Assembly (NCBI GenBank): GCA_965285935.1
Contig: OZ260665.1
Coordinates: forward strand, 24,118,001 to 24,182,000
Reading direction: 5' to 3'
DNA: 64,000 nucleotides
Source: Ophelia neglecta
Lineage: Eukaryota
In this document: positions 1,986-64,000 of the stretch, one piece after another
Numbering within the stretch: position 1 is the first letter of the stretch
Layout: the number at the start of each line of letters is the position of its first letter
Program-made: the position numbers and the translations under genes
The notes under the pieces: generated by a model
Seen by the model: only the letters and a program-made list of their open reading frames with translations
The model's database searches: none
Told to the model about the DNA's origin: nothing

Positions 1986-4382
1986 TGGAGGAAATTAGCT
2001 ACCCTCCTAGTGCAGTCTAAGGCACTTTAAACAAAGATGTTAGTAAAATAATAGATTCCCTATTTGATTGTCTCGGTTGACCTATTAGTAGACAAGTATA
2101 TATATTCTTTCTCGTTCTGATAAAAACCTTTGTATACTGTGAGATAACCTTTACATTGAATCTCACACTGAATTTGTTTAAGCTGTATGTGATAATTTGT
2201 ACATATATGAAAATAATGGGCGCTAATAGGGATTGCTGGTTGAGACACAAAACCGCCTCTTAAGAAATTCTGCACGCAAACTATTTAGTGGTTTCTATAA
2301 AAGCAGGTTTTTTTGTGTAGTTAATTTGTTTGCGCTATCTTCCAAGTAAGATCGATTGATGACTACAGCTGTCACTGGGAGCGGGCAAATTGTCGCGCAA
2401 ATTGTTCAGGGCGATATGCGTTCAATCCAAAATTTCCATGCTAAGTTTTCACCCGTGACCTAGGCCTACTCGTAATTGAATTTTTACAGTAGCAAAATCC
2501 ACCCCACAATTTATTTTATTTAAAATCACTAATTGTTCGATTGGAAGCTTACCGACCTATACCTATCTGATAATGTGGGAAATTGAAAATAATGTCAACA
2601 CAACGTCATTACAGTATTCTATATTTGCACAAACGTTAAAGGGAGGAAAGTCCGGCATGTCCGGATTGTGGGAAATAAACGCCCTAATTATAATTAAAAA
2701 ATTGTTTCCTACCGAACCGTAATACCAATTATATAACTAGTGGCGCATTGGGCATGTAGGGGGCACCACATGTTCCCCGCTTTTCATGTTTAATGCTTTG
2801 CAAACTGAGTTTATTTAAAAAAAATGATTCATTTAACCAACCATTTGTAAATTATCCACATGCTCTTAAACGTTCAGATATTTGCAATTATCAAAGCCAA
2901 CATTTATGCTGCAAATTGACGCCCTACAAGCTTTTAATATGGCTTTAATTTTCGGTTAATATGTTGTCTCCGAACTTTCGGTTTACCTTCAGATATTACT
3001 GTATCGTTGTGGGTGGTTTGCTGTCTAATTGAGAGCGTGGGTGGTCGACGGACAGGTGCTCGTGTCGTTCTCCTCCGTCGACTAACCACCACTCTCTAGT
3101 TCAACAACATACCTGAACACTATCACAGTTTCCCCCACGATCACAGAAAACAACCACTCCGAAACGCATTTTACGGCAAGTTCTCTTAAATAAATTGTTT
3201 TTTTTTGGCCCCTTTGAATTTGTGGCACGCAGGACTTGAGAAATAAGACGATTAAATCTATGTGATTTGATTAATTAATATCGAATGAAACTGTGGCTAA
3301 ATTGATCAGATAGCCTATAGGGCCTAACCGATTAGTCTTGGGATGTGGGAGAATTGGGCGATGAGGGAGCTGGCTAAATGTTGATACATTTCATGTTATC
3401 AAAGGAACCAAGGAGAGAAACACACGTGCAAATCGTGCTGGGTCCTTTCAAATAGTGGCATTCTATATGTGCATGTTTGATAAGTCGACGCAGGGCAATT
3501 TTTGCAGTTTATATTCTGGGAAACTCTGAGTGGAATATATTAGTTATTGACTGTGTTTCTTAAATTCTTTTCTGAAGTGAGCTAAATATGAGTTGAGGTA
3601 AAATCTGGTCAACTTTGAGTACAAGTCAAGTGACCTGGAGTGTTTATCATTTACATCTTAAGAGGAAAATAAAACCATAGCAACGTCTCACATGAACCCC
3701 CACGACGTGGCCGGATGACGCTCAGCAGACGACAAAAACCGACTCACGCAGACATCAGTGTCTGCATCTGCGATGCTGATCTCCTCCGCAGTCAATATCC
3801 TAAATGGGTCTTAATTACCCACTAAGTGATCTTATACACATTAAACACACAACGAAAGCAATACAGATAATCTATCTAGCTACATTATCTTAGATTTATG
3901 GTAGTCCCAATGAGACTCTGAAATACATCTTAATTACGATTCTACTCTTTCGAGGAACATTATGTTAATAAATTGTGCGTGTGAAATGTTCACAGTATAT
4001 CTATGGGGACATATTATTACGCAAAAAGCGTGTTTGTCTTAAGGTTCCGAGCTTCAGAAAAGTTACGCTAACAATTTTCATCGGCACAACAGTTAAAAGT
4101 AATGTAATAGCAAGACTTTTTCCCTTCGGATGTTATAGAATGAAAAAAACTTAACTGAATCGTGATATAAATATTATGCTGGAGGGCACTAAAATGGCGT
4201 TAAGTGGTTCATTAAAATTGACCTTAGAACCTAATTCAAGGACAAATCTATCACAGGGTCACCAAACCGAACGAAAAGCTTTAACACTTAATATTGCCAA
4301 CGATAAGGCTAAGAATTAACGATGCCTTGGAAGAATGATTCTCGGTGGGGCCGCCCACTTAACCGTTTTACTGTGTCTCCCC

Positions 4383-4715
4383 GAGAAACTCGTGATTCTA
4401 TTCTGACACTGAGATACTTAGAGTCGACCCTGCTGTCCATGGATCGCACTCTTTGCCCACTTGGATTATGATCTGACACTGAGACCCTTGAAGTCGACCC
4501 TCCTGAGGGCGACTTGTGGAGACGAGGGTCAACCTCTGACTCAATGGCCAAAGATGGAGTCTCATGTAGAGGAGGGGCGACTTCAAGTGGCACAGAAGAG
4601 TCAGATTATGGTGAGACAATGAACGATTCCATCAGTGAATGTGGACAGAACCACCAAAAATGGTTCGAATCCAACAATCCGGGGACGGGGTCGAGAATAG
4701 TCACAGTCATATCTC
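4383..4715. mobile_element. Nested foldback / palindromic element (MITE-like)
   Basis: Inner arms ATCTGACACTGAGACCCTTGAAGTCGACCCTCCT (~4471-4504) and AGGAGGGGCGACTTCAAGTGGCACAGAAGAGTCAGAT (~4569-4606); direct copy of the left arm at ~4403; weaker outer arms at ~4383-4408 and ~4689-4715. Confidence 0.55.
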
Positions 4716-7700
4716 ATCATAAGTTCCACAGATACCTCAAAGTAACGTTAGTTAAGCTTAGATTATAAATGTAGCACGCTGGGTGCAGCGTTTCTGTAAT
4801 AAACTCCGTGTAATACATGGAAAGAAGAAGACCTACTCATGTAGAAGGACTTAAACCGAAACACCAATAACTTAAAGTATGTTTTAGATTAACTTTCCGA
4901 GTGGGTTTGGACTACAGTATTCTAGTAATTCCTGCAGGTGGTAAGCCTATAGTCCGACTATATCATGTCCCGCTGTAATCCGCTTGATAATATTTTCTTC
5001 GATGTCAGTTTTCGCACCCAAACGTGACCGGAACCCAATTGGGCATCAGATAATCTCCGCTGGGGGTGCTGCTTACAATTACACGATAGCGAGGCCTAAC
5101 GCCCCCTGGAGGCACAAAAACACGAGTTCGCTACGCATCATTTAACCTGTTTAATGAAACGCGGCGAAGGGAAAGGTTTGTCAGGTGTCAGCGGAATTCG
5201 GCCGTGACAGAATGGCCTGACGTGTTGAGCTGAGTCAGTTGAGTTCTGAGTCAGTTGATTAATCGATGTTGAGAGGAGAATTGAGTGGTTTAAGAGTCTG
5301 ACTAGAATGACTGTGCTGTTTTTTTTTGTGGCATTCAGCTCGTGATGGACTCGGTGAATGTTGCCAATCAATTCGAACTCGCTCGACATTGCCATTAATG
5401 TGAGCTCGATGAAAAATCAATTGAGTTACTCATTCTTGGTTAAACTCGATAAAGGAGTCACGATGAGTTGTCAATTAGATTTGCTGTTTCCTTCTATATT
5501 GCCGAAATGTAAGGCTTAGAGTAAAATAAAATCACGCAATAGGTGTCAAAACAAATCAGATCTGTGCATAGTAACTTCCCCTTCCAAGCAGCCTTTCTGA
5601 AAGTAGATAGTGTGTGGTGTTGCTCAAAGGCTTCTTAAGACGCCCCAAATTACTAAACCAGTAGAAACAACCGAGTCTTTGGATCACTAGCTCTTTAAAG
5701 ACCAACTAGACTGACTGTGGATGATCACCACGGAAGAAAAGTTCTCGTTCTCAATAATAACCACTCATTTAGATGTGTATCCTCTGTGATTCACTTGGCA
5801 CCTGGGTTATTTAGTTTTACTGGCATCTGTATCTATTTGAGGGACCACTATGGAAATAAGAATCTTTTAGAGACTCTATGGTGTCATCCTGTTTCGTATG
5901 TGATATAGTGTCCACAAAGGTATTTCCTATATGCCAGAGCTTTCTGCTGTGATATACTTGCCTCCTTTGTTATTACGCTAGTCATTTTATGTATTTTATA
6001 TGTGCGAAACAAAAAATCAATCAATCAATCAACCAATCAATAAAATCACTCCATTTGGAGATTTTATATCTAATACATTGGTCTATACATTTATACAAAA
6101 GTAACTTAAGGCGTCACTGGAGAGACATTCAGGCACTCTTTAACTCTGTAAACAAACTGTTTATTAGATAAAGAAAGCTGGGATATGTTTGCAAAATCAT
6201 ATTTGAGTGGTATCGTCCTGTGGTATACTTATCTATAAACAAATGGCTATTGATGCTGAAATCTGCCGCCTGTCGTAAGTCAAAGGGGTGTAAATGAAGG
6301 AGGTGATAGATGACAAGGGACCGCTTGACACCTGGCACACCTGGCCAAGATCAAAGCCCTGTAAATTACCTTACCGGTACACCTCGGATAGGTTCGCCAC
6401 GCCAAGTGTACAGAACAGCTTGTCGTGAGTCTGATAATGATGAGGCAGACACAAACAATGGACATTATTGTCAGGTACCGTCAGTAGCACAATATCTGCT
6501 AAAAGATTTGCCACTTGTGCAAATGCGTGAATGTATATTATATATATATATATATATGTATACAGAAACACGCACAAAGAACACGGTATTCAATTATCTT
6601 AATTATGTATTTTAAACTAGGCAGTTCCTGTCAAGGTTCTGAGCATAACCAATAAAGCTGCACAGATGAATTTAATTGGTGAATTTTTAATGCATGGCCT
6701 ACATGTATATATATTTTCTTCATTTTCCCCTGGTAAGAAGATAGAAAGAGTACAGCTCGTAGCAACGAGTGTGGTTATTAAATGTCAATTGAACAAATGA
6801 AATAACAAATTAAGTAAAATTTAGCCGCTAATCCAGTCCACAAACATTTCACGTCAAATGCGTCTACCGCTAACCCTTACCTTTTAAATGATTAAAACTG
6901 AACAGCGGGATGTCAATTGCTGTTAACAGGTTTGATTCATAGCCATATTATTAGTGTATAATTCTGAACGTTTTATCTGTAAAATATGGATTTTCCTCTA
7001 GATAAATTAATGTGTACCGGATGCGGCCACTTTGTGAAACCGAATAGCCTCACGCTGGATGTGTCAGAGGTTAAGATAGCCCAGGCGAAGATGAGGTCAT
7101 GAGGTCAACTTTAACTTCTCGTTCATCAAGAATTGTGTGACAGGTTTGGACACTAAATATACCCGCCATCTGTTTTTTATATCAGACGAGATGTTCGTCT
7201 CGAAGTACCAAACGACAGCTTAATTATGAGAGAGTGTTAACAAGATATGATAGATCACCGTTGGATCATAAAAAATATAACTTGCATTGAAAACTGTCAA
7301 TAGATACGTAAATATTTGGGTTAAATAATTGGCGTTTTGACCTTGGTGAGACAAAATAAGGGATCTGTGACAGAGAAGTGGTGTCTGAAAATCAGTAGGA
7401 CCGAATTATGTTATAAACTTAAGTTATTCTCATACTTTCAAAGTAATTGTTCTGATAGCTACAGGTTACTGTTTTGCTGTTAAGTTTAACACACACAGAG
7501 GAACATGTATTATATATTTATACACGTTTGAATATTGTATTAATGCTTTGCTGAAAGAGGTTAGGAGATTATAACTATTTATCAGTTTATGCCTACTAAA
7601 TTATATGTAGTACAAGACTTACCCATGGAATGTGTAGTATACCCTAACATTGACATGAGTACATTTAGTAACGGAGCTCCTAGATAGAGTTAAATTCTTT

Positions 7701-10380
7701 GTGTAATAATAGGCATTATATTGGACATCCGTCCGATGTGTGTAAACAGATACCAGATTGGGGTGAAGTAGACAGCATGAAGTATATTTACACGTATAAT
7801 TTACATATTTACGTTGCCCTAATTAAAACTCCATCTTTTCAGCTCATCACAGGTGCCCATTAATCTATTATTTATCTTGCTATTCTGCATTTGTAATAAA
7901 CATCCTTGCCTGGCCATATGGGAGGATTTAATTCAATCACTGCCCCGCCTTTTGAGGAAAATCCGACTAATATCCTTAGAATTATGAGCTTTTGTTTGAC
8001 CGCCCATTAGCTTTGGACATAGTCCATTCACGGCCCCGTCAAATAAAATACGAACCGTCAAATATTGGCGGAAACACTCGAGATTTCTGTTCAAACAGAG
8101 AAGGTAACTTTACCCTAATCTTGGACATACGGAGCTGTATACAAGAGGAGGGACGTTCCTAAGTTGCTAACCGGTGGATTGAAGTAGAGAGGTTATTTAG
8201 AGAGAATACATACCGGTACTTTATCATGCAGTAATCCTTTTAATACCGAAACTGGTGAAACAATGCTCATCAATATTTGACCGGGTATATTTGAAGGCTT
8301 GGTTTACGGCAAATCGTTAGGGTCAATTCAAGGTTTTGAGGTGAATATAGTTAGTGTCAACAGGTCTGTTTGGTTTAGAAGAAACACATCAAGTTACCGC
8401 GAGTCAAACAGCCGAAACAAAACAACATTAATTTTCACCAGCCTTACAGGTGATACAGGTAAACTCTAAACTCCAATTTAAAACAACCTATTAAGATCAA
8501 ATGCATTAGCATAGTACATATCCTAACTTATCTGCAGGCATTGTGGCACACCCGAGAACTTTCATGTCAGCAAAACAAAAACGGTGGAATCATTTAACGT
8601 ACTAAATTTCGCATTGAGTTAAAAGGACAATTGTTTCCAAACTGTTCAAATACATGAAGAGATCTTAGCTCATCAATTAAGTCTGCAGACATTCAAACAG
8701 GTTTTGTAAGAAATATGAAGAAAAACTGATACCCTTGTTGTTTTCATAAATATGGTCACTTTTAAGCAGTGTGACTTTTAAGGCTATCATACATTGTAAA
8801 CACCTCGTGTGACCCTGTCCACTTCGGCTACCTTTACCTGGACACAGCTAAGAACTAATGTATACATACTATCACCGGCTTATCTCGATAGCCACACCAC
8901 ACATCTGGTCTGCACGTGATTTGGTACCTAGCATGTGGCCAATACAATTATATTGCGCTGGACATATGCATCACAGTATTTAGAAATTCAAGTTGTCAAT
9001 TATTAATAACGCATGTGAAGGCCCACGCTGGTAATCTATAACCCTCCCCCCATCCCATGGTCTTTCTCGGGGGAAGGCTATATTGTTGTTTTGAAATCGG
9101 AGTGTTCTCTTATAAATCTTAATATTGCTCAGTTGGTTCTTCAGAGGCCTGGATTGAGATATGTTTTTTTTCCCAGGAAATACATACTTGTACAGTGTAT
9201 TTCCTGACTGTCAAAATATCACTCAAAAACCAAATTACCGGTAGCAAAAGGCGCGTGCACTCAGATATACTTAAACTCTTCTATTTTATAGGTCTCACAT
9301 TATTTTTGAATAGCATTTTGCAATATTGGGAATATTATATTCGGTACGATAAGTTTTAGTAATATTTTACATACATAAGTATGTAACTCACAATTTCAAT
9401 GTATATAATACTGTGTGAGTAACATGTATGTTTATATATTTGCGTCAATCGTCCAATACCTTACTATTTTTAAGAGAAAAATACTAAAAGACCAGAAACA
9501 GGCCTACATGCACCAGCCACAATCGAAGTGCATGAAGCATAGGTAGAACATGATATTTAGAGATGGCACGAGACTGCCGTGACAATGATAGTTGTTTTTT
9601 AGTTGAAAATGTCTTAAAGTTGCATTTTTCCTCTAGATCAAACCATGCAGTCGTCGTGGGGATTCTATGCAGGTATAGTTTACACAAAATAGTCGAGTTC
9701 TTTCCTCCAGCGCCAGACCACATTGGCTCGAATCGCTCAAAGTTGTCCCCAGTTAGGCTACATATACTTTTGTTACAGAAATTTGAGTATATATAGTACT
9801 ATAGCAACTACTATAGCATATATATAGTACTATAGCAAGACATATTTTGACTAATCATTTCTCGTCAGCAGTTGCAATGGACGATCGATTAGTACTTAAA
9901 TGAACTTCGCCTTTTTGTTTTAGCAGATCCATGATAATATCCCTAATCTGACTTGGCTGCCAATCGCCGAACGATTTGAAATCTCTTCTCTTTATCTTCG
10001 CCCGTGTTTCAATCCCACTCCAACATCAATTGCCGCGTATCTAAAACACGTGTCACTAAACAATTCGCAGCAGAAGACAAAAGCTTCCGGAAAGAGCCAG
10101 GAGTCCCAGATTTCCAATCAATCCCAGAATGCCCTTAACGTATCATCCGGGACTGGCGGGACATTTTCCGGGAAGAAAGGTGGAGCACGGGGATTGGAGG
10201 CGTGTGGGGTTAACGTGTGCGGGTTAGGGGGTGGGATGAGGAGGTAGGTGGGGTGAATGATGAAGTGCCAAATAAGGCAAGTGGGGCAGTTGGGGTGAAT
10301 GCTGAATGCTGACGGGGGCAAAGGGGTGCTGGGGCAGTGGTTGAGGGCTGGACTGGATCTGAGTATCGAAATGATCTATC

Positions 10381-10458
10381 TATATAGGCCTATTATATAG
10401 GCCTATTATATAGGCCTATTATATAGGCCTATTATTATGGGCCTATATAGGCCCATAC
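10381..10458. repeat. 13-bp tandem repeat (TATATAGGCCTAT)x4 plus two degenerate units
   Basis: Direct reading; TAGGCCTA at 10385, 10398, 10411 and 10424. Confidence 0.92.
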
Positions 10459-13400
10459 ACTCGCCGTTTACTGACGTAGATTTAAATCAAAGTTTGACAG
10501 AATAGGACGACATACCTATAAGTGGGCCAAGGAACAATGCCCGTCTATCGTTATTGTCAAACTCGTGAATTCGTATCCGGCTTCAAAGACAGAGGCTAGG
10601 CCAACTGTGAAAGGCCATCATCATTATTTTAAATGTTTAATTGAGTTGAGAATGTTGGCTTTTTAGACCCACGTCTCGAGGTTGCTTATCAGGCCAGTCA
10701 TCTGTGAGGCAGATTAGAAGACAGGGCGGACTAAGTCAACATGGCATTGTTTCTTAATTCTCGCCCATTTAAGTCGAATTTACATCAGTTTCGCTCCATT
10801 ACACGTGTCAACGGACTGTCGACTACAAAGAGGGAACACCCTGCTGAAAGACGTAATCACTATTAGTCTATGCCCCAAATGGGTTCCTGCCCAAGGGCTC
10901 TTGAACTTTAACCTCGTTTCAGCCCCAATCAGGTCCCGTCTCTTTGGAGTCTAAGCAGAAGACTCCGATGGAATGCCAGAGCCAAACAAAACAAAACAAG
11001 AGGTCACCCCCGCTATCAGGTCATTTAATCAAACACCAAATCAAAACTTACAGTTCATATGCAAAACACCGTTCGTTTCATTCTTGTCTATAAACCATTT
11101 AAGAACAATGGTATAAATTTCCCAGACCATTATTTAGCAAGTTAGGAGAATAATTTACACATTTTGTTGTACGCTGTAACCAATCAATGACTGCCAAGGA
11201 CGAAGGTTATAAAACTTCAATAGAGGTACCTTTTAGGCAAGACGCGAGAATGGGTACTGCGTCAGATGAAGAGTATTCTTGAAAGGGGGAGGTGAGAAGG
11301 TCGCGCGATTAGCGCGCTTGAAGCTCGTTTAAATGACGACAATATAGCACACCTGCATGGTACACAAATCTCTCAGCGACCATTTTCCCATTTTATCTTC
11401 TAAACTGTTTTTCCCTGTTAAGGTTATTTAGTAAACACCTTCTGGTCTTGCCGTAGCACTGGCATTAATCAGAAAAGTCTGTTTTATGTCTTGTTGATCT
11501 CTAGGATGTAAATTCATCATATTCCGAACTCAATTGATGCTTATTTGTGGACTTGTCGGTAAACAATAACATCTGTCGGACTTTGGAAGCCGGCCACTCT
11601 TCTGAGAGAAAGCCGATGTCATAAAAAAGTGTTTTATTGTTGAAATAATAGTTAATTTTGCGAACTGAGCATTGTTAAGTTAGCTTTTAAAAGGCGCGCA
11701 CTCAGCTAATGATGCCTTCCGGGCATTTGGCGCGATATGAGCTGTTAACCGTCTGGTTCGGTTTGATTTGATATTATAAATTTGTATACTTTCATCAGAC
11801 TGATGCATCATTGCCACAAACTAACCTTGATCAAAATAGCGGGCTATTAAGGTCAAATGGTTCTCACAGATCAAAGGCTTGATAAATTATATAAAATCTA
11901 TATATTATAACAAAAAAATCTTGTATGTATAGCGCTAATTATTATAATTGACATATTTGCCATAAATATATAATGCCGAAAAGTATATAGTTTAATATGG
12001 TGTCCATTTAGTGAATGTTTTAAGAGTTAGGCCTACCCATATATGCACTACTAGTAACAGATATTTTCAGCATTCTTGGTATTGGTAAAGGTGAACATTT
12101 TTTCGTCATCTTCTGTAGTTTCCTTAAAACAATTAATAATTTAAGAATTGAAATAATAAGCTTATTTCTTGCACAACATATTTTCTTTCTTCAGTAGGGC
12201 TACGAGCTAACACCAAGACAACTGTTTAACCTAAAACTATCCACATATATAATTTATTAGAATGTTTTACCGCTAATCTAGTGACTGGTAAATTATGAGT
12301 CTTTATCTTTATGCTTTCAGTAAGTTTAGGATACTAAACTAAAACCAATAATAATAGATTGTGCCAATAAAGCAACACTTTTAGGCATACTTTATAGGCC
12401 GTTACTAAATCATAGGCCTACTTCTTAAGATTGTTAAGTAGGCCCAGCTCTCTCATTCTTTACGTTTAGAAAACAACTAGGGCTATAGGTAATAAAGGAC
12501 AGGACACCGCCTTTCAATTTCCGTATAACATGTTTTCACAAGAGACTATAGGCATATAGGAACCCTCAAAGAAGCTGAAATTAACTTAGGTGGCCCTCCT
12601 TGGTTGAAGCTCCTGTAGCCGACAGCAGCTTCCCCTGATATCAGCTGGTACTCGAACTACACGACATTGGGCCGTAAAAGTGGCGTTTGAACTCAGAGAG
12701 TTCTAAGCAGCCCGGCCAGTAGAATCCCAATCTCAAGTACACCCTTCATACTTATCAACATGCCTCCAAGCATGCGCCGTGCTTGACCTTCGTGACCCGC
12801 GAGAGCATTTTGACATAAAATTCAATAGACAACTGTCGAAAACTGGCCGAATTGTTGTCGTAAATGTCGCTCGTTAGGCAATTCACTGCCAAACGAGTCT
12901 TGTATTGTGGGAAACGGGCCTTAGATGCTCAATCATCTGAATGAAGAGCACTTCGACTTACATTTTTGTCAATATTTACTAACAAAGCTGAGTCATATCA
13001 GATAGAATCCTCTAGAACCCATCTTACACTGATGGCTCCACTACTACAACTCTTACAGACGTCTAAATATCTAGTGATTTTATTTTCAATCAGAAGCAGT
13101 ATAATTTCATTGTCGCCATACTTCAGCACACGGACTAAACGGCCAGGCGACTTTTTTTCCTTTCGGTCCCTAACTCCGAGTCCCTGACCTCGACCCCTCT
13201 TAGATAGCATTATTTTCAAAATTTACTGTTAGGCTCGCATTACCAAGTTTCTCGTCTTGGTCTTGTATAAGGCGTAGACTCTTACGGCGGGAGTTTAAAG
13301 GTTTCTAAAGACAAGCACGTGGCAGCACATAAATATTCCCAGAATCCAATCATGAAGCTGTGACCCTAAGGCAAGATGGGTAAAAGACAATATCATATGA

Positions 13401-16400
13401 TAGGTATTCATTTCTGAAAAATACAATTTTCTTGATATCGGTTGTCAAAAGCAGAAATGACCAGAAGCTATGGTGCGACCTAAATGTATTGAATTGTCCG
13501 TCGAAAAGATAACTCAGAGAGTGCCTGGGCAAGGAACCTGGATATTAACGCTGAAAATGTGTGCTGTGAACCATTCGACAGGACGACCAGCCGATCTTCC
13601 CGCCTAAATATTGACTAGGCCAGATTCTGCTGCTATGACGTTATATAGTATGATGGGTTATTAACGTTAGTATAGGGTTAAGTCCAGAGCTAAGGGGTTT
13701 TGATCTAAAAATTCTAATATCTGGAAGCGGTCTTACGTGCTGCGATTAGATGAGCTCATTAGCATACCTATTGGCTGAGATTGGCTTTATCGGTGTCTCC
13801 ATTGACCAGGTTTAAGTTTAAGGCCAAAATTGCTAGGTTAAAGACCAAATCCTGAATTTAATCTGAATTGAGACCTAAGACTGATTTCAGAAGCCGGGTA
13901 CAGCATATATACACGTGCATACGGTCCATAACAAGGCAGTTTACTGCACGTTCAAGAGACAAGAGACAGACTGCCCCCGTTAAGAAGTGAGTCAGAAGTG
14001 AGATCTAGACTCCAAGCTTTATTGTTGCTGTGCATTTGGGGAAGTAGCTATGGATCAGTGATGCTGCTAAGATTATCTTTGATGCTTCTTGCAGCATTTT
14101 GATTTCTTCTCTTTCGATTTAGGAAAAAGTGTCGATAAAATAAATAATATCCTGTATTCTCGTTCTCCAGATCACCTGTCCCCACGGCGAGCATCTACCG
14201 AACCACTTAAACACACACACCGGGTTTACGTACGTCAGCCTGTCACGTGTTTTGGTAACCGTACCCCCCCCCCCGCCGCCACACGTACCATCACAGACAC
14301 CGGGTTTTTACATCAGCCTGTCACGTATTTCGGTGACATATGTTTCCATCTCTGGTATTGGCAAGCAAACTCTTCACCGGAGAACAAATACGAGATGACA
14401 TGTTCAATATGGCAGGCTATTTGAAGATATTTAACTCTAATAGATTGTCAATTGTTAGCCAGAAACTCAGTTACCTTTGAAATTTCCCGTTATAGTTGGC
14501 AGACGCTGCTTTTTTTGATTTTTTTTGCGGTTTTTTACCTTGTTGCTATTCCAAACGTCGCATTGGTGTATGATAAGGAGAAACAAACATACATTCAGAT
14601 GAAAATAGGAGACATCTTTACTGGTATATATAAACATACTTGATAGTTTTGCAGGCTTTGTCGGCAGCTGAGAGACGATGGTAGATGTAACTGAGAGGTT
14701 CTCTAGATTGACTTTGTTTACATTGAGGTCAGACGACAAATTGAATTCTCATTCAATCAGCGTTCTGCGATGTCAGTGCGATTGAAGCGACGTCAGTATT
14801 AATAAATGTTTAGAGCCCGGTCCAGCGAAGCTATACACCTAAAAAAACACCTGAAAACAGTTTTTAAAGAAAAAAAACAAGGGTGGCATTGTAATGTTAA
14901 AACTTATGTTTCGGGCTAAAAATAATGATTGTGGTGAAAGTGGTATCTTTCATGGCGAAACCGGCTCGTGGAGCGAAGAATTGTTCTGCACGGTTATATC
15001 AACTTGTTGCATACAAAAAAGAAAGTTTTACCCAAAGTTCCAAATTGTTTTAATTACTATTTATTAAACTCAATCTGTAATTGCTGACTCTCTTTATCTT
15101 GAAAAGTGTATCTAAAGATCTCAGGTAGTTTGAGAGGAGTTTAAAGGGTTAATGCACGGTTTCTCGTTTTACTAATTGGATAATTCATGTCCCTCTGAGC
15201 AGCCTCGAAATCGTGCATTAGATTCTAATACTTATATAATTAATGTTATGAACTGTTTAATAAATATCTTATTGCTGCAGTATATTCTTCTCGGAACTTT
15301 GTCCATGTTTAATAGCTAGAGCGTATATCAACAACTCTGTATAAGGCTACTAATCGACGTTCACACAGATACGTGGCTGTGTTATATATAACTGTTTATT
15401 AAAGGGGCCTGCCTCTAGAATTTTCAAATGGGGAGGAGCGCTTCAGCGGCAATACACATGTATCAAAAACCCAATGGCGGATCCAGATTTGAAGAATAAA
15501 AAGATCAGCTGATAGAGAGAGAGCGTTTGAAGGGTGTCCCCGCCCAAAGAGTTCGATGACCCCGTGACCCCTGCAATCCGCCCCGGACATACCTGTAAAT
15601 AGTTCAGGTACCACAGAACATTGGCGACACACGACTCTTCCAATATTTACCCGCCGTTTTAAAGTACCGCATGTCAACGGCGCAGCGGGTTGAAGAGGCA
15701 CTGATCATTAGCCGCACAATTTGCTTTAAACAAACACAACCTATCTGGTCCGGCGATTCACCTCCACTCGTTTGGTTAAAATGGTCACATACTCATGTGA
15801 TGGGGCTGGCAATAGCGTGGTATCCCTCCGCACGTGTGTTGTACTGGTCTCGACCGGTACAGGTGGGGCTAGTAAAAAACCATCTACAATTTGATGATTT
15901 TCCCAAAACACCATGATCCATAGATACAGTCAAGACTGATTCACGAGTTCATTGCCTTTTGCGTGTAGCAATGTCGTGGTAGACTTCCAGATGCACGCGG
16001 ATAAAGTTGTGTTCACTTAAGCATAGGAGCATATCTGTAGTCACTGATAAACCTTGGCCATGCATGTAATCAAATTTAAGTAGATATGTATGAAGGTCAA
16101 ATTGACAACCGTTTGGTGGCTGCCACAATACGCCGTAAAGGCTGTTTAGTTTTATTAAATGGGTGAAATTTAATACAGGTTTCCTTTTTGCTACTCGCAT
16201 CGTTCTTTTTGTTGAGAACGTTCTACATAGTTTAATGGAAAGTCAGTCTATAGAAAAAAACAGTGATACAGTTGTAGTACCAACCTACTACAAGCCTTCA
16301 ATACGTCAGTTGAATTTGGCTTTCCGAACATTTGCCAAGAGTTATCCTATATGCTATGAAATCGGAAAAACGTGTGATCTGAGCTAGCCAACAGTTAAAA

Positions 16401-37710: not shown

Positions 37711-37869
37711 CTGAAATCATAAGATAACTTGGACATCTGTTCGTCGGGTGGGAAACTCTTTTTGGTGTAGCCTACGCAAGTGAGCGTTATTTCGGAATCG
37801 GCGAAATAGGCCTAAACCTGTATTAATAAATATATACTATACTTATATCATAACTGGAAGGAAACTTAC

Positions 37870-50209: not shown

Positions 50210-50344
50210 CTTTCTTGTGTTGGTTGCCTCCTCTTCATAAGACATGCTGACAACGGCTAACATTAAGTTGATTAGGTAGAATGAACCAAAGAACACTATA
50301 ACTGAAAAAAATATCATGTTCCACGGCCCGTTTGAAAGCAGTAC
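50210..50344 (-). CDS. Nav2: Nav2 exon: DI S6 (ends at a GC donor)
   Basis: ttgtag|GTA...AAG|gcaagt; [45 protein letters not shown]; 135 nt. Confidence 0.9.
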
Positions 50345-50711
50345 CTACAAAAGGAAGCAAACTAATTAGTTATGTTATCAGTTTATTGGCGATGCATATT
50401 GCCCTCATTTTCTTATATAGGTAGTGGTGGGTAAAGTTTTCATGTCATAACAAAGGAAAGGCGACTGACGCCTTGGGCATGGACAAGAAGTACCATGGAC
50501 TACAAGATGTCTCCCTCCTCAGGGGTCAACTTGTTGGAGTGTGTGTTTTCTTTTACAATATTTAGTCTCACCGTGCTGGAGAGAAAATGAATCAAAAAAG
50601 AGTTTTGCTAAACTGATAAAGTTGCAGTTCTAGTTGTTTCAGTTTGTTGAATAAGTGGGTTTCAGTGGCTTTAAGTGTGGACGTTATTGAGGAGTGCCAC
50701 CTGTGACCTAC

Positions 50712-50856
50712 CTTCGCGTAGGGATCTTCCCAAAAGTCTAGTGTGATCAGTTGGAAGGAGTTGAGCATGGACCAACCAATATGGTCAAAGTTTGTGTAGC
50801 CGAAGTTTGGATTGTCCCCTATATGCGGCAAACAGGTGTAATTTCCCGGGCATACC
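50712..50856 (-). CDS. Nav2: Nav2 exon: DI P-loop (filter residue D)
   Basis: ttgtag|G...AAG|gtaggt; VCPGNYTCLPHIGDNPNFGYTNFDHIGWSMLNSFQLITLDFWEDPYAK; 145 nt. Confidence 0.93.
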
Positions 50857-50967
50857 CTACAAGCAAAAGTGGTTACATTTATATAGAGTTACAACCATTA
50901 TCCTGGAGTTATTTGATAGAGAGAAATAACAAAAGGACTGAATTGTCGTTAAGTATGTTTAACCTAC

Positions 50968-51229
50968 CCGGCTCCTGATGCGTTGCCGCAGATGACATAC
51001 CCGAAGTCGTCTGCATACCAATTTTCCGGGTTTTTGATATGTTCATTGTAGTACGTAGGGGTCACGGTCACATTGGGCGGGATGTCCGCCACGCACTTCT
51101 GACGTAGAACGCCGACGTACACTTGGAGAGCGAACAGCGCGAACACCATCATACAGAACAGCGTCAGTAGTATTACTTCGCCAAGCATCTTCAGGGACTT
51201 GAGCAAGGCGCTTATAATGGTCTTTAGAC
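50968..51229 (-). CDS. Nav2: Nav2 exon: DI S4-S5 linker, S5 and extracellular loop
   Basis: cggcag|GT...GG|gtaggt; LKTIISALLKSLKMLGEVILLTLFCMMVFALFALQVYVGVLRQKCV...CGNASGAG; 262 nt. Confidence 0.93.
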
Positions 51230-51647
51230 CTGCCGAAAGAAAAAGAAAAGTTTCCATGAACTCAAATCACTTTGATAAATCAATATGTTTTAGCCAACAA
51301 AAACTCCTTTAGCAATCGACAAGATGCCGAAGAATGAGATTATATATATATAGCCACTGGCATTTCAAAAAAGCTACATGATCTCATTGCCCCAAGTAAA
51401 GCAGAGAATAGAAATCAGAGAACGCTGACAACAGTTGGCAGGTAGAGCATTAATAAAGCTTGATAGCCATACAATGATGTATGGAAGCAGTTTTTGCTCT
51501 TAGAAAAGGAAGCCCGAGTCTCTCACTGTCGCTGCGGAGCAACCTAACTCATCTTTCGGTAAGGCCAATTGTGTTGGACTTTGTATTGATAGCAATACAC
51601 ACCAAACCTTTTAGCCACCATTTCGTGACAACATGCTGATATATATA

Positions 51648-51827
51648 TAGTGAAACGTGTAAATTAAGACCAATGGACTTAACTTAAATAACTGCATGGT
51701 CTTCTTATGAAGGTGGCCTGTTTAGACAGATTGTTCTTACATGCAAAGTGTCCACTGTATGGTTGTCATAATATCAGAATTGACAGGGGGATAAATATAG
51801 AGGTAATCTTTAAGGCAGATTTGGCTG
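51648..51827. mobile_element. MITE copy 3 (diverged)
   Basis: TAGTGAAACGTGTAAATTAAGACCA...AGGTAATCTTTAAGGCAGATTTGGCTG|TA; aligns by eye with copies 1 and 2. Confidence 0.7.
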
Positions 51828-54438
51828 TACCCCATAAGCGCCAAAGCTTGGATGGAGGTTGTAGCTGTACTGCATGGGGTATACTATGAATATTTCAAGA
51901 GAAAATCTAATTCCTGCAGAATTTATGGCAATGACAGGCATTTTTCTGCCTTTAAAACTTAAAGATAATCCACACCAAGTCGGTGATCCCCTTCAAGGCT
52001 AGTTATTTATATTACGAATGCAAACGTTTTCAGGCCCAACTCTTTAAAGTTCATATAGGGCCCTGTACCCAATAACTATCTATAATCAATCACCGAAAGG
52101 GAAACCAACTCTGTTAAACGTGGCATGCGATTAAGGCACGGGGCGGAAACGGCACCATAAAGCGGAACCAGTTGGAAGGCCCGGTTAGGCAAAATTTCTC
52201 CATTTGCAGTAAATATAAGAACGCTTGAAACATCCCAGCACTAAATATATTTTGCATTCAGTAAATAGCGTGATATTTGCCCGGTCACAGAGTTGAAGTA
52301 ATATATATTTAGTTATATGTTATTTAGACTATCATAGAGTATTAGAGTATTGAGTAATAGACCCAAAACTTGCTTTTTTTGTACACAAGTAGACTATGTA
52401 ATGGCTACAGCCTGCATTCGCTGACCGACGTAAAACTAATGTCATAGACTTGAATAAAACGCGTTGTGCCCGGACAATGTATAAAACAATATAAATGATG
52501 TTGTATTTGTTTGTGGGCTTTTGGGACCAGTTTGTTTTGAATTCCACCTGGTTGTAAGCCACCACTTGGGCCCAAGTAGAGGTGTCCTGAACCACGGTAC
52601 CAAGATGCAACGAGCCATCGCCATACGAGTCTGGCCGACCTAGACACCCAGACCCGCCGGTGTATGCTTTCTTTTTCAGCTTAGGTAAAGCCGGCCCCAT
52701 GGCACAGGACATACGATTTCGTTAATGTGTCTGCCATCGTACCTGTGCGTTCAATCTTTTAGAGGAAGTCAGGACATTTGATAGCTTAATGCCCAAGACT
52801 CTTGTGTTACTCTTTCAACCTAAATGCACTTGCTCGTCTCTTAAACTGATGAAAAAAAATCCCATGGAAAAAGGGTGTCAGTGAGTCACCAAGACCCAAG
52901 CTTCTTTGACCAAGGCCTATATATATCGGAGAGGAGCGGCAATAGATCTCTGTCTCCATCCGCGTGGTACTCAAGATCATTTTCGTTTACTTAACGATGT
53001 TGAGAACATAAACCGGCCCCTGTTGTCCTTTTTAGTGAAACGTGGTTGAACCCTCGCTCATGAAACGTTCATATAATGGTTTAAGCCTTAATCACGGTAT
53101 CTGTTGACACGATTAAAGGGCATACTGCTTTTGTATGAAATTGGACCGGATACTGAGAAGGGTAAACATGGCTACATTAAACCCTTATGTCCACGGAGGC
53201 GCCACGATCTTCTGGTGAGAGCGTTTTCGTAGGCGAATGTTCTTCAGTTTTTTAAATTACATGTCTGCTATACGTGCACGTATGGCTTTTAAATAAAATT
53301 AGGCATAATAAGCATTATTAACATAGTTAACAAACAAAAGTAAGTTTATCAAAATAGATGTATCATCTTTGGCAGGAATTAATCACATTTTGTTGAAGCT
53401 CTTTGATTTCCCATGGGAAGGACTGAAGAGCCACACAAAAAAGAAGACGCAAAAAGGAACACGATGTCTTAATTTCTCTGGACATTTATGGCAAAATATA
53501 GTTAAATTACCTCAGAAATGTGAAAGAAATATTTTTCAGCCACTGTTTAGCTCATTGGTTAATGTTATGATGAAAAAGCCTGAATTAGTAAAAATACCAA
53601 GGACCTCGGTTGATTGTGTGTAAGCTTTACATCTTTAAAAGGTTCACGTATATAAGTTGCAATAAAGACGAGCAATATGAAAGTAGAAGGTCAGAGCCAG
53701 AAGCAGCCGATTTCCCCTGTGTTGGTTAAGGCCAGCAGTGTTCCCCTAATCAATTGTGACTTGAGAGAATTCCTTCCCTGTGCAGGTTATAGCGCGGATG
53801 AACCAAGCACAGTAATACATCATCAATGAAAAACGCGAAAAAGTGGTCTCAAAAATGCTCACGTCTGCTTATAGGTATGGCAACATGATTATACACTGTC
53901 GGGAAGGATGAATCAGCTTCCGGTCGGGGCCATTTGTCAAAATGAACGAGGAAGATAAACCGCTTACATAAGGTTAGTCCACAATGGATAATAAATGTTT
54001 AACCATGTCTCTGATGAGCATTTGTGAGATAAGTTGCCTTCTCAAACCAATATCATTCGCAGATTTGGGCTTTCAAACTTCGCACTGGATATTTTAGTAT
54101 AATTAGTCTCCCCTAATTTAAAGTAATAATGTGCACGGTATTTACCGATACTGGCGCAAAGCAGGGGAAATTCTGACCAACACCTTAATAAGCGTTCACA
54201 TGGTCACATGGGACATGATAATCACGCGGAGACCACGTGAGAAGACTACCACGAGAAGATAATGAGAGACCCAGGTGATCATGATCGTCTGGAGAATAAC
54301 TAGAGGCTTCCGGCCTTGTTACTTATTAAGAATGTATCACTTCGCATCAACTAACAGTTGATGAATGGGCGCGGGGGAATACAAGAGGGCAAACATTACG
54401 ATGTAGTCCGCTTAAAAAGAGTCAAATGTACCACCTAC

Positions 54439-54551
54439 CTGGCACAATGGATACAGTCTTTAGGGCACGTAGCACACGAAATGTCCGCAAACTGGATATG
54501 TTGCCTAAACTGTTGCTACCGCTTGTGTGTTCTAGGATAAGGGTTACATAA
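54439..54551 (-). CDS. Nav2: Nav2 exon: DI S3-S4
   Basis: tttcag|T...G|gtaggt; [38 protein letters not shown]; 113 nt; not in the ORF track. Confidence 0.93.
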
Positions 54552-54748
54552 CTGAAAAGAACATAAGTTTTATAATTCTTAGCCTTAAACGTATTTTATA
54601 ATCTTTTGCTTGTTGAGTACCGACAATTCTGAGGTGATATTATAACCATTCCATCATAGATCGATTTAAGAAAGTGTGAAACATAATCAGTTACCCGCCT
54701 TTACCTCTACTAAAAGGGGGCATAAAATGGCGATAAATGACAACTTAC

Positions 54749-54877
54749 GCTGATATTATGACGATTATGTCTAATATATTCCACGAGTCTCTAAGATATG
54801 TATATTTGTAGATGATGAGGCCTCGTGCTACGAGCTTGATTAGACATTCCACGGTGTAAATGCCAGTGAATACATAC
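54749..54877 (-). CDS. Nav2: Nav2 exon: DI S2-S3
   Basis: ttacag|G...GC|gtaagt; [20 protein letters not shown]...[17 protein letters not shown]; 129 nt. Confidence 0.93.
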
Positions 54878-57231
54878 CTGTAATTAATGAAATATAAAAA
54901 CATAAGATAAAAATGATCCAAACCAGCACTGGGGAGGAACTTTTTTTTTGGTGTGCGCATCTACTGACAAAAATAGGTCTATGGCACTTTTCGACATATG
55001 AAGGTGATTAAATACGACCTGTCTGTTCTGGCTAAGCTACCAAGGCAATATGAGCGCAAATATATCAAATAAAAAACTACTTCCGCTATGGATGTTCTGG
55101 AATGTCATCCAACTTTCAGGTGTAAAAATTAAATAGGTGCAAGTAGGGCAAGGGCAGAAATGTGTAAATCTCCCATGGGTAACATTCAAGGACGAAATAA
55201 ATACGACGAGCAAAATTGATCAAATAATGAACTTCGGTTGACCTAAATGTGACTTGCGGTTAATAGCGTGACATATGCCCATTGGCTAATGGTTTATAAC
55301 TCCCCCATCGCACTTCTATTTCAAATCCTCCTAAGTTTGATCACCGTACTCTCTTAATAGCAAATAATACCCTTTCTCCATCACAACAAAGAGTTGAGAT
55401 GCAATAACTTTACATATTGGAAACTATAAAAATTTGGCGATCAGGAAAATTTTCGGGTAATCGCGGATTTCGCCAAAATTTCTTGTGAACAATTTCGCTA
55501 CGTAAAGCTTAACTTTCTATAGAATCCCATTGTCTATAATGATTCGGCTATGCATTTTCGAGTCCGACATAGGCCTATATGATGAAATATAGTTCGTGAG
55601 TGTCCTGCACGCGCAAATGTCTTGATTTACAGCAAACTTGCTTTCAAGGGAACAGCTAAAAGTGCACTCATCCGGGCATCTACCTTCATTTGCCACAGAA
55701 TCTCTTGCCGTGCTCAGAGACCATTAGACACAAGCGCCTTTTATTGTTGGCCACTGATCAATGCTTCTAGCAATGACAACAAAAATGTGATGGATGGCTT
55801 TGTTATTGTGCTCAAACTTTAGTCGGATAAATGGACAGAAAGAGGCATGCCGATAGAAGGCTGCCTGATACACAGTCATTATATTGAAGGATAAAAAGCT
55901 AAGACATTTTGCTAAAATCGAGGGACATATACAATAGTTCATTATCCGTCATTGAAAAGCTCACTTAAGTTTGTGGTATATTGAAAAAGTGCGCTTGGAT
56001 ACCGTATGGAAAATCGATGCCAACGCACCCTTTTGGGACAATCACAGTGATGTAGGTGGTCTCGTGAACAGTGGAGCTACTGCAAGACTGCGACATAAGT
56101 TTGATGCATGGGGAATTTGAAAAAAAACTACAGGCCCTTTGACAAAGATACCATGCAAAGATGGGTTCACAGGAAAAAGCAAAGGTGTAAAGATGGCGTT
56201 CAACACACCAGGCACATTTAAACTTTCGGTGGCTAATGTACATTAAACATCCGGTGTTCTAAAAAGGAGTGTCCGCTTTTAATATATGTCACGTGGCACG
56301 ATTATTGGGGCTATACAACTAGAATAGGCCTAACGTTCAGGGTATATCGACCGATACTTCGTTAATAGGCCTATATTCTATAATACATTTTAGCGACGAA
56401 CTTATTCATTGGTTGAAAACTGCCACATTCATCAAAAAAAATCTAGATTTCATTCCATGTTTTGCAAAAAGCTATAAAAATGAGGAATAAGCCAGAGATA
56501 TTCATTGATACCGATTTTAGGACTACCGATGTTGGCATTACCATTGCCATATCACGTGGGCCAGACGTCGGATCTATGGATTTCCATATAGCCTAGTTGT
56601 TGTCATTCCCAGAACATGTATACATGTACATGTCTATTTATGAAGTGCTGGGTATTTCACACAGGCTTCTCATGGCATTCCGTTTCAGTTGATAAATAAA
56701 TTAGTCGGAGAATAAACGATGGATTGATTTAAAAAGTAAAGATTTTTCTTTATCAGAGTCAAATCAGTGTATTAAGGGGGCTGCGGTATAATAAAATAAA
56801 GATTTGTTTGGCAAGAAACATTTTCAAGGGGGAAAACACTGCTGTTTTCTCTCGACGTTGCCGTTTTCATTCTCAGCATGCATTTATTTGTTATTTCGAA
56901 ATTTGGCGATTCGTTGAGCTTTTACTTGATTACACCGTGGCGTAACTCCTTCAAAATATTTCCATCAGCACCCGAGTGAGTGGCCAGAGAGAGAGAGAGC
57001 AAGGGTGTCAGTCGGCGATAGAGGATTATTGTTGCAAGTGGATGCAAAAGGTGCAGTTCATATATAGTATGATTGGAAAGGAAGCAGATAATAAATTGTC
57101 ATTCCTGTCTGAGAGGGAGGAGGGGTAAGGAAGATGGAGGCAAAGGAATTATTATTTTTATTATCAATCTCGGACAATGTTTACGCAAAGAAAAGCCTGT
57201 TAATGTATAATAATTGATGGTTTTAACTTAC

Positions 57232-57446
57232 TCGGCTACGTCTGTGAATGTTGACTGCGGAAGTGCTAAACACACGCAGTTGAAGAGAATGGTGAAAATG
57301 ATGAAGTAGTCGAAGAACTGATTGGTCGCCAGCCAGACGGCGAATCGTCGTATCGGGTTCCATGGCGTCAGGAGAAAGAAAGCCCGCGTCGCCGAGAACC
57401 GATGAATATATTTCTTCTTGAACCTTGACGTGATTACCACGAAGCT
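57232..57446 (-). CDS. Nav2: Nav2 exon: N-terminal domain and DI S1
   Basis: tttcag|AGC...GA|gtaagt; SFVVITSRFKKKYIHRFSATRAFFLLTPWNPIRR...FDYFIIFTILFNCVCLAL; 215 nt. Confidence 0.93.
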
Positions 57447-59309
57447 CTGAAACAAACATTTCAATTCGTTTTAAATCACATAACCCGTTCGATTCACATG
57501 AAAAATGATTCAAAGTTTCGAAATGAAAAAGATAAGGTATTTTATCTTATAAAGACGTGTGATGGAATATTTTGTCATGAAATTGTTAAAACTAAACGAT
57601 AGATTATTTATGCACGAAGGGGTTTTATATTTGAAAAGGATATCCACAGGAGCTTGTATTATGCATATAAATAATATCTATATATGCAATCATTATCATT
57701 TATGTATATCACACATAATTGCATAGGTATATGAAAAGAGTGATGTAATGAATATGCACGAAGAAAAGTAAAATCCGCATGGCCAGTCCTTAAAAAACTG
57801 CAATTTGTCACAAATAGTCGTCGATGCAGAAAGCTGGCATTTGTGAGAACACGTCACCCTCAGAAAACCAATACTCAGAATAATCAACGCATTGCATGCC
57901 GGGAACAACAAAAGTTAAACAAGCGATACTGCAAGGCCGGCATCCAGTAGTATTTGTAAACGATTGTACTCTTAACGGTGATTACGTAGCGTTATTCATA
58001 GTCTGTCAATTCATGGGGCTTATCTGCATTAGTGAACGATAATAGGAGGTACTTCGCAATATCGCTCGGGGTAGTCCTCCGCTAAAAGTATTAACCGGAT
58101 AAAGGAGCTGCCAATCGTTTATAATGATCGAGTCGCTCATCGTCATTATAAATCAAAGAGGAGGGGGGATTCATCATGTTCATATTCAGTGAAAGGAAAA
58201 CAATCTGAAAATTAATTGACGAAATGACCTTGCCGTGCCATCCTATTTACGAGTCGTTCCAGGGTTGTGCGCGCGCAGAACGCTGGGCGGACTGATAAGA
58301 CACTTTGCCAGTTTGATGTAGAATAATAACAGAAAAACTGTCTATCGTGTGCCCAACGATGATATCACTCGGGGAGTTGTCCCAAAGAAACCTGCTGACC
58401 CACTACCAGACGACAATGAAATCTCCTATCGGGTCATTTCACAAATTAAAAAAACTGTGTACTTTTTTCCCGCGTATAGGCCTAAATTATCTCTTTCTAA
58501 AATATGGCTGCGAAGTATCGTAATACATCTTAAGAATGTTTTATTTTCATTTCGCATTTGCATTATGCCTATTTCCATTTCTTTTAAAAGAATATCATAT
58601 CTGTATAAATATAGGGCCTAGTGTAAAATACGAGTAGCCCTGGAAGGCTGCAGTGTCCCACTGATATATAACCCGGATAACTCGCGCTAAAAGGAAGTCA
58701 TTAGAATGAATATTCTAGCAAGTTCGTGTCCGTATATACATATAGTGCCATGACTTTGTTGTATCTCTACGCCAAGTGAGATTACCCCCGTTGTTTCCAT
58801 CCAGCTGCAGGCGTGCCTCCTCCGTAGTAAGGCAATGTTTCTAAAAAAGAGTGATTTGACAGGACGATGACCTTTAAGCTAAGTAAAATAGTTTCAGCTG
58901 GCGTGATATTCTGCCAGAACCCGGATGTTGGCCATGAACATCTATCACATTCTCTACCGGGGAAGCAGAATCTCTACAGTTATTTTCATATTTACTATCA
59001 TGTTAATGTTAGCAAGACACAAATCATACTGAGTGTATAGTGAAAATATAAAGATCCTTTACGATCGCCAGAGCTATTGAGATATGAATAATTGACCTCG
59101 GAAAATGTGTTAGGCCTTACTGCGGTACGGTATTAACTCAAAATAGACCGATGCAGTAAGGATATTTTAAAAGCGAGGAAATTCCTTATAGATAAAACAT
59201 AGGCTTGTATCGAGTACACCTATATATAACTGTAGGTCAGAATGATGATCTTCTGGGGGGGGGGGGTTACGCCCTTTTCTCAGGATCAAAAGACTTGTCA
59301 AATCAACGA

Positions 59310-62805: not shown

Positions 62806-62861
62806 GATTGTTCCTGATTGTTCCTGGTCCTGGTCATGTTCCTGATTGTTCCTGGTCATCT
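62806..62861. repeat. Short degenerate tandem repeat (GATTGTTCCT / GGTCCT units)
   Basis: Direct reading. Confidence 0.7.
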
Positions 62862-64000
62862 TCTGTGATATTTTCAGATGCCCAGTAATCTACTAGAATG
62901 TTATTGGCTGTGATGATCTACCACGGCTGTAGTGTATAACAATAGGAAACTATACCTAAGATATGTAATGAGACTCTACTGGGCATTTCTCCGTATACTT
63001 TTGCACCTTGGCATTGTAGGGTATTGGCAAACAGCGGATACTGTGGGGGACAATTGTCGTTTTGTGGGACACGGCTCGTTATTCATCCCTTCGAGTAGCC
63101 CCGAGAAACGTCCAGTAGTTCCTTAATTAGACTTAAATTATAGGTCTCAAGACAGTAGGAACTCGTGCAGCTAATCTGGTTCCTTGCTACATGTATAGGT
63201 GCCGTGGGGATAAACGGCCAGGCGCATGCCCGGCATTGTCGCAAAGAACAAACCCAATTATACTCAGATCATCATTAATTATCTTGATATTACTAGGCAT
63301 ATATTAAACTTGGGGAGAAGGTACCTTGTTGCCAGGAAGTCGTCTGCCGTATACACTTCCTACTGGGTTTATTTAATGCGTAAGCTCGACTGATCTATAA
63401 ACAAATCTAAAATTGGATGGTCTTAACGAGTTCCGATTGAAATGATGTGGGGATTCGAACATTGAACAATCCATTATAAATGCTTTATTCATGGGGTTCG
63501 CCCACACCCCGAAGTCAATAAAGGTATATAGGTCTCAGAATCTATGACGATTTAAACGGCATAGGCCTATCGCTGTCTTAAGAAACAGGGTTTCCACCAT
63601 TGAGAAGAGCTCAAGGAAACAAGTCCTCACCTTAGAGCTTATGTTGTATATAATTATCATTTAATGTATAATAAATAGTTGTGTTTGATGGTTAAGGTTT
63701 ATGACAAGGAAAGATCTATTGCAACTTATACCACACCATTTTACCTTACGGAAAAGTTCAATGTAAACAAGAGCTTTGGAGAAAACCAAACGTAATACTC
63801 GGGCCTAGTTCCCTGGTTGGTCAGTGGCTCCCTGAGTGTGAAGATGGATATGGGAGTGGGTGTTGGGGGCGCCCTAGACACATCCGAAATGTGAGGGGTC
63901 AACTAACTCTTTGTGACAAAACCACTACATAAATATTTTTATTTCACCATCATATGTTTTTTATACAATCAATCAAATCGAAGAAAAATTCACTATAAAA

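Follow-up and report, generated by a model that had tools for sequence, protein, structure and literature searches.

Dispersed copies of a nine-letter word at Hox, other homeobox, and BMP3/sodium-channel loci of the annelid Ophelia neglecta suggest a site for a putative lineage-restricted chromatin protein

The stretch of DNA analyzed here (the window) comprises 64,000 nucleotides of the Ophelia neglecta genome (GenBank assembly GCA_965285935.1, contig OZ260665.1, positions 24,118,001 to 24,182,000). It carries 18 exact copies (8 on the plus strand and 10 on the minus strand) of the nine-letter word GCAGACGAC, to which an earlier note on this DNA had drawn attention and which is followed here both as the 9-mer and as the 8-mer GCAGACGA. 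The GC content of the window is 40.1%, in place of the approximately 38% previously assumed. The window contains parts of two genes, both on the minus strand. The first, a BMP3-like gene (1..16990), has exon 1 at 16691-16990 and a second exon at approximately 1-953 (5' edge approximate); the window contains its 5' part, including the propeptide, while the exons of the TGF-beta domain lie just to the left. The assignment as BMP3-like held up, with BMP3 as the top solved-structure match (E = 1.6e-25; next match, 2.5e-16). Just upstream of the ATG, at position 17072, one run of the same sample carries an 11-base insertion allele. Allelic variation in 3.5 kb amounts to 13 changed sites, none of them inside the four word copies there, which is too few to judge constraint. 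The second gene encodes a Nav2-type (NaCP60E-like) voltage-gated channel with exons at 29605..57449; most of this gene is inside the window, and it extends rightward, with an N-terminal exon 35 kb past the right end of the window (L014), and its first coding intron contains a tandem array at 61394-62451 (17-bp unit, 61.5 copies). The best relatives are lophotrochozoan, and in a quick tree the channel groups with that of the long-branched orthonectid Intoshia (Shimodaira-Hasegawa-like approximate likelihood-ratio test [SH-aLRT], 98).

The window is part of a CpG-rich, word-dense domain that runs from approximately 24.110 to at least 24.282 Mb of the contig (G000:C8) and holds 30 exact 9-mers and 48 copies of GCAGACGA in 172 kb. 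The left edge is a sharp CpG step near 24.110 Mb, adjoining a CpG-poor stretch from 24.108 Mb with a tRNA synthetase gene; to the right, CpG-poor DNA is reached by 24.34 Mb. In addition to BMP3 and Nav2, the domain contains a gene for a rhodopsin-type G-protein-coupled receptor (GPCR). Six copies of GCAGACGA fall within 10 kb of its left end, only one of them less than 3 kb from the CpG step.

The 18 copies of GCAGACGAC comprise 6 in coding sequence, 1 across a splice acceptor, 7 in introns, and 4 between the two genes. Five of the coding copies, all on the minus strand, read Ala-Asp-Asp: 16895..16903 in exon 1 of the BMP3-like gene, 39183..39191 in a cytoplasmic-loop exon of Nav2, 41427..41435 and 41481..41489 in a shared Nav2 loop exon, and 51006..51014 in the domain I pore-loop exon. 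The sixth (48177..48185, plus) lies on the non-coding strand of a Nav2 loop exon and reads Ser-Ser-Ala. The acceptor copy is at 44426..44434 (minus, Nav2). Intronic copies are found at 3725..3733 (plus) in the first intron of the BMP3-like gene, at 31371..31379, 32484..32492, 33460..33468, and 49229..49237 (all plus) and 45248..45256 (minus) in Nav2 introns, and at 63339..63347 (minus) in the long first coding intron of Nav2. The remaining four are upstream of the BMP3-like gene: 17691..17699 (minus, approximately 0.7 kb from the ATG), 18559..18567 (plus, with a one-mismatch copy directly after it at 18566), 18777..18785 (plus), and 21003..21011 (minus). All 17 copies listed in the earlier note are present at the positions it gave, with the coding and acceptor placements it described, and the near-matches at 14729, 21380, 22603, and 58406 were confirmed; one exact copy (51006) had been overlooked. 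As that note observed, four copies are found within approximately 4 kb of the BMP3-like ATG, but 4 of 18 copies fall within some 4.1-kb stretch in 73% of random placements (p = 0.025 for a fixed stretch chosen afterwards), and this group is therefore not special. The statement that flanks are mostly unrelated also stands, with the exception of a 37-bp stretch containing the copy at 21003, whose duplicate at 21366-21402 carries the near-match at 21380. A small repeat of very high copy number, with inverted ends, is also present twice upstream of BMP3 (20271-20455 and 21546-21705). It has a summed contig depth of >100,000 among the matches listed, and it explains a raised count of CAGACCA.

The number of copies is far above chance. 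In 100 dinucleotide shuffles of the window, GCAGACGAC occurred on average 0.12 times and at most once per run, and Markov models of orders 1 to 4 predict 0.16 to 0.55 copies. Leaving aside tandem arrays, simple runs, and the palindrome TAGGCCTA, GCAGACGAC is the most over-represented 9-mer of the window. (TAGGCCTA is itself the top over-represented 8-mer in the sampled genome, at 240 copies versus 49 expected; TACATGTA and TAACGTTA are raised too, and all three are possibly repeat footprints.) The whole genome (762 Mb) contains 12,297 copies of GCAGACGAC, or 1.6 per 100 kb, whereas the window has 28 per 100 kb and is thus 17-fold denser. Over the Hox cluster, other homeobox genes, and the BMP3/Nav2 region, the word is approximately 40 times commoner than chance.

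Dense loci totaling 454 kb contain 67 exact 9-mers (1.5 expected), and each single change at positions 2 to 8 is represented by 1 to 7 copies, near background. The edge positions accept other bases (position 9: T, 26; G, 15; A, 8; position 1: T, 11; C, 9), and the consensus is R-GCAGACGA-C/T-A, with a sharp 7-base core, CAGACGA, and flanks that are uninformative past one preferred base per side. The products of CpG decay are at background (4 versus 3.6 and 1 versus 4.6 expected). Judged by sequence, this profile is that of a recognized, maintained site rather than of a decaying repeat. The idea that an abundant sequence-specific factor would bind here is supported by the sharp core and graded edges, although its proposed relation to Smad is not (see below). 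A variant YY1 site is unsupported: the TG form is at background, and words matching the commonly given YY1 consensus do not co-occur. Two words that apparently co-occur, CAGATC and GGCGCG, have no fixed position relative to GCAGACGAC. An RNA-level signal was ruled out by the equal use of both strands (10 versus 9 in the window and 20 versus 17 in Hox). The 200-bp flanks of non-coding sites are richer in CpG than are random positions of the same loci (8.25 versus 6.16; p = 2e-9), and their GC content is slightly higher, which fits either location in regulatory elements or local shielding from methylation.

The density of GCAGACGA falls into three tiers. The window has 29.7 copies per 100 kb and the next 100 kb to the right has 23, comparable values being found in the Hox cluster (24.7; 15/15 loci positive) and in one of two other homeobox sets (25.0; 11/12 loci), with the second set at 13.3 (4/6 loci). 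Control loci gave 8.0 (Wnt), 6.5 (ligand-gated channels), 6.2 (TGF-beta; 8 loci), and 5.0 (trypsins), while 40 evenly spaced samples gave 5.2, proteasome loci 1.4, and Smad loci 0 (4 loci). The observed/expected CpG ratio of the Wnt, channel, and TGF-beta controls (0.82 to 0.83) is no lower than that of Hox (0.74); therefore, CpG retention alone is not the cause of word density. Simple CpG retention in unmethylated DNA was likewise ruled out by the CpG-matched loci and the Markov expectations. When 33 homeobox loci were compared with 58 CpG-rich controls, the word was also the 8-mer that best separated the two groups (72 versus 36 copies; p = 1e-10).

An unbiased genome-wide sample was obtained from the complete lists of matches to two 14-letter extensions of the word (57 and 31), which came to 80 sites after 8 lying within 1 kb of another were collapsed. 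Reversed-word controls for the two 14-mers gave 1 match versus 57 and 12 versus 31; the reversed 9-mer is no valid control, as it shares seven bases with the motif. Nine of the 80 sites lie within 50 kb of a homeobox match, where 1.18 were expected (p = 3e-6). The same sites show 2/80 near channels (1.0 expected) and 1/80 near trypsins (0.56 expected).

Several of the loci deserve description in their own right. An intact ten-gene Hox cluster, on one strand and running from labial to Post2, lies at G000:C1:60.53-61.08 Mb (L044 to L058); from their peptide signatures, we take its members to include Lox5, Lox4, Lox2, and Post2. Elsewhere on C1, five diverged Hex-like homeobox copies (123.41-123.51 Mb; L078 and L261 to L269) carry 23 copies of GCAGACGA in 90 kb and share a few non-coding blocks, one of which contains the word. 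A further region (C1:22.86-22.99 Mb; L270 to L275) is an inverted duplication, approximately 94% identical, with five homeobox matches. Tandem Forkhead expansions are present at C12:45.19-45.28 Mb and C9:28.62-28.63 Mb (eight and three matches, respectively). Finally, C1:128.52-128.68 Mb holds approximately 28 near-identical TGF-beta-domain genes, mostly with a 343-residue open frame, which repeat every 5.0 kb in an array of tandem and inverted units that represents either a real amplification or an assembly artefact.

The word also enters coding sequence. Across 1994 Nav2 and BMP3 codons (three loop exons, holding the copies at 39183, 41427/41481, and 48177, were placed by splice sites, with an open frame for the first), all five Ala-Asp-Asp triplets are written GCA GAC GAC, the excess that the earlier note had proposed to look for, although in the same genes GCA accounts for only 25 of 134 Ala codons and GAC for 72 of 113 Asp codons. 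The 9-mer occurs six times in these codons, versus 0.40 in 10,000 synonymous shuffles, a test that is partly circular, the word having been picked in the window, and that to this extent weakens the case made below. An independent test on 29 homeobox last exons (3786 codons) gave five copies of the 8-mer versus 0.84 (p = 0.0008), in three frames, and two of the 9-mer versus 0.27 (p = 0.02). An effect on codon choice, suspected in the earlier note, is thus seen in both sets. In Nav2, Ala-Asp-Asp occurs 4 times in 1577 residues; among 120 relatives its rate is 0.114 per 1000, and 97 of these lack the tripeptide altogether. The pore loop bearing the copy at 51006 is equal in length to those of Lineus and Owenia; therefore, the word arose there by substitution. 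The amino acid changes brought by the word are at poorly conserved positions and involve no insertions. Relative to local expectation, there are 6 coding copies versus 0.045 and 11 non-coding copies versus 0.185.

Taken together, the word is maintained, sharply defined, and strand-symmetric, and its density tracks the type of domain while ignoring position and reading frame. We lean toward reading GCAGACGAC as the site of a putative lineage-restricted chromatin protein that would mark developmental domains by the density of its sites. A sequence-specific protein, most plausibly of the zinc-finger type, would read the word and be sensitive to methylation of its central CpG, the CpG-rich domains being taken as unmethylated from their CpG ratios. 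Its predicted role would be to recruit Polycomb-type or looping machinery, or to exclude methylation, at developmental domains. Each new copy anywhere in a domain would be weakly favored, and copies would therefore settle in tolerant parts of proteins too. If each position is treated as being at mutation-selection equilibrium, the natural logarithm of exact enrichment over one-mismatch enrichment (3.3 for dense domains, approximately 2 elsewhere) is of weak-selection size, so that each site would require little pressure and none of the copies would have to be essential. The random spacing and orientation of the sites and their domain-wide spread appear to fit such a domain mark better than discrete boundaries. 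A sharp, over-represented word associated with homeobox genes is what a lineage-restricted architectural motif would present, and one word copy lies inside a conserved non-coding block common to two old homeobox paralogues.

A number of observations weigh against this reading. The term "developmental domain" describes the word-dense regions in part: the domain of the window has no homeobox match, 71 of the 80 sampled sites are >50 kb from any homeobox match, Fox genes show no clear excess (1/80 versus 0.36 expected), and Wnt and TGF-beta loci are merely intermediate in density. The low tiers still exceed local expectation by approximately 9- to 10-fold (17 versus 1.6 and 3 versus 0.34). Among 133 dense-locus sites, close pairs are as frequent as under random placement at five distances, with no homotypic clusters, and strand and relative orientation are unbiased; homotypic clusters in discrete elements, of the Polycomb-response-element type, were thus not found among them. 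This lack of clusters and of any spacing or orientation rule sets the word apart from typical insulators or response elements. Conservation between paralogues is weak, with 4/5 alignable sites intact, 3 of which are in the 94%-identical duplicates. Finally, the word does not appear to be general. Metagenome contigs scanned with the Ophelia Lox4 gave 80 Hox loci, of which 36 had lophotrochozoan signatures; these 36 (121 kb, partly redundant, and perhaps from a narrow group) contain 5 copies of GCAGACGA versus 4.6 expected, and the other 44 contain 1 versus 3.6, compared with 37 versus 2.3 in the Ophelia Hox loci. Without an excess in the lophotrochozoan-type contigs, the word is therefore not general to lophotrochozoans.

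We give almost no credence to an origin as remnants or excision footprints of one transposon family. It is true that a few word copies lie in tandem or local repeats (L248 and L267), that 7 of the 31 matches to one 14-mer form a single array, and that an ancient element origin is conceivable, since in placozoans a loop motif arose from Mutator ends (PMC12221973). However, 212 of 232 GCAGACGA sites lack a similar flank anywhere in the 2.06 Mb compared, the other 20 being gene duplicates or local or tandem repeats, and only 7 of 198 sites fall in the 14% of sequence masked as repeated, a mask that is a lower bound because the compared DNA amounts to 0.3% of the genome. Together with uninformative flanks past about one base, CpG-decay products that are not raised, and a copy at 51006 that came without a 9-bp insertion, these figures agree with the earlier statement that the sites are not obviously copies of one transposon. 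Hardly more credible is a Smad-binding or BMP-response element providing feedback on the BMP3-like gene, the Smad-related link proposed in the earlier note. The word includes CAGAC, the Smad core (PMC5727232), four copies are upstream of BMP3, and GGCGCC lies within 150 bp of 10/130 sites versus 3.1% expected (p = 0.008, with 17 words tested in all). Nevertheless, generic CAGAC is not enriched: among 16 CAGACnn words, the only two in excess are CAGACGA (248 versus 53) and CAGACCA, the latter derived from a repeat. The word is sparse at TGF-beta and Smad loci, the upstream group is expected by chance, spacing to GC boxes is not fixed, the word occurs in one of five GRCGNC-N5-GTCT composites, and the palindrome GTCTAGAC was found near 0/130 sites. 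The genome shows only four MH1 loci, and an expanded MH1 family as binder was not found. CAGAC is thus common to both elements, but the present word needs four more bases and, unlike the Smad/BMP element, has no GC-box composite and is not concentrated at TGF-beta or Smad loci; Smad is unlikely as its reader.

The main rival, which we judge unlikely though well ahead of the two above, is a neutral or selfish drive: a binding or repair step would favor the word-bearing allele (for example, breaks on the word-lacking allele being mended from the word-bearing one), and the word would pile up in open germline chromatin with no regulatory job. A drive would explain random spacing and strand, insertion-free amino acid changes at poorly conserved positions, a word above expectation in all tiers, and the slightly higher GC around sites. 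Coding enrichment at least as strong as the non-coding is equally a prediction of neutral drive, and bacterial uptake sequences, too, raise their own tripeptides and sit at poorly conserved residues (PMC2817400). Set against it, the equally CpG-rich channel, Wnt, and TGF-beta loci have 3 to 4 times fewer copies than homeobox loci, and one-mismatch neighbors are not depleted (82 versus 51). To our knowledge, no such drive is known in animals, and the hotspot factor PRDM9 erodes its own sites. The sequence patterns examined here would be expected from a drive and from a chromatin factor alike, the two differing in their predictions for transmission and reporter activity. The site of an early-embryo pioneer activator (Zelda-like), opening the first zygotic regulatory genes, is less probable still than drive: the concentration at homeobox genes, the presence in exons, and the CpG- and GC-richer flanks would suit it, whereas the sites neither group near starts nor form homotypic clusters, the word is dense through a 70-kb neuronal channel gene, and Hox activation is late in at least one annelid (PMC9977687).

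How Polycomb-type or topologically associating domains (TADs) are specified beyond flies and vertebrates is an open question, and a nine-letter word whose density marks Hox and other homeobox domains would offer both an immediate bait for pull-down and a site to mutate. The presence of the word in codons further implies that a non-coding signal may bias the protein evolution of developmental genes. Such a coding bias is well described for bacterial uptake sequences but would be surprising at such strength in an animal. A bolder possibility, offered tentatively, is that of an uptake-sequence-like animal word that, via a chromatin factor or biased repair, would paint the Hox cluster and further developmental domains, irrespective of position, with a copy every few kilobases, forcefully enough to rewrite amino acids of Hox proteins, BMP3, and the sodium channel. 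Such a word would represent a sequence code for Polycomb-like developmental domains in animals, where none is known.

Known systems offer partial parallels. Drosophila Polycomb response element words, Zelda sites, and CLAMP sites are short words that gather at Hox and further developmental loci or paint a chromosomal domain; they are clustered or sit in defined elements, whereas the present word is unclustered. Bacterial uptake sequences (PMC2817400) resemble it in being a short word with thousands of copies, on both strands and in coding sequence, with raised tripeptides, and in Ophelia we likewise found random two-strand dispersal and a tripeptide excess at poorly conserved positions (in a small sample of 1994 plus 3786 codons). 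They differ in that the animal germline has no DNA uptake and in that the density of the present word depends strongly on domain type. The ctenophore proteins CTEP1 and CTEP2 bind a CpG-containing loop-anchor motif when it is unmethylated (PMC12221973). That motif is lineage-restricted, GC-rich, zinc-finger-bound, and located in unmethylated regulatory DNA; it sits at anchors and promoters, as documented by footprints, DNA affinity purification sequencing (DAP-seq), and loops, while the present word is described by its sequence.

Among annelids, the promoter motifs named in two studies are ETS, YY1, NRF, and CTCF (PMC11292947 and PMC7854359). No published description of the word was found by its letters or among annelid and lophotrochozoan motifs, though the motif tables of PMC9977687 and preprint supplements may hold it; nor was it matched in the accessible text or supplements of PMC9977687, PMC12862220, PMC12550047 (12/49 files), and PMC12637686. 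An earlier preprint names two unassigned annelid-specific motifs that rank with the most bound motifs of the Hox cluster (10.1101/2022.02.05.479245). Like the word, they are abundant there; they were compared by description, and coding effects are not mentioned in the accessible part of that report. A further parallel is a motif specific to Capitella teleta, without known match, which is present at 57.6% of the TAD boundaries and at 68.8% of the loop anchors in a genome whose TADs are enriched in developmental genes (10.64898/2026.05.18.725834). Both are annelid, lineage-specific, without a known factor, and tied to Hox and to the domains of developmental transcription factors. The Capitella motif, which was compared by description and not by letters, lies at boundaries and anchors in open chromatin, whereas the present word is spread evenly through domains and codons. 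GCAGACGAC may nonetheless be the Capitella TAD-boundary motif and hence perhaps already published as a logo. A chromatin factor as the reader of the word is plausible, and what stands out about the word is its Hox and homeobox association and its effect on codons and residues.

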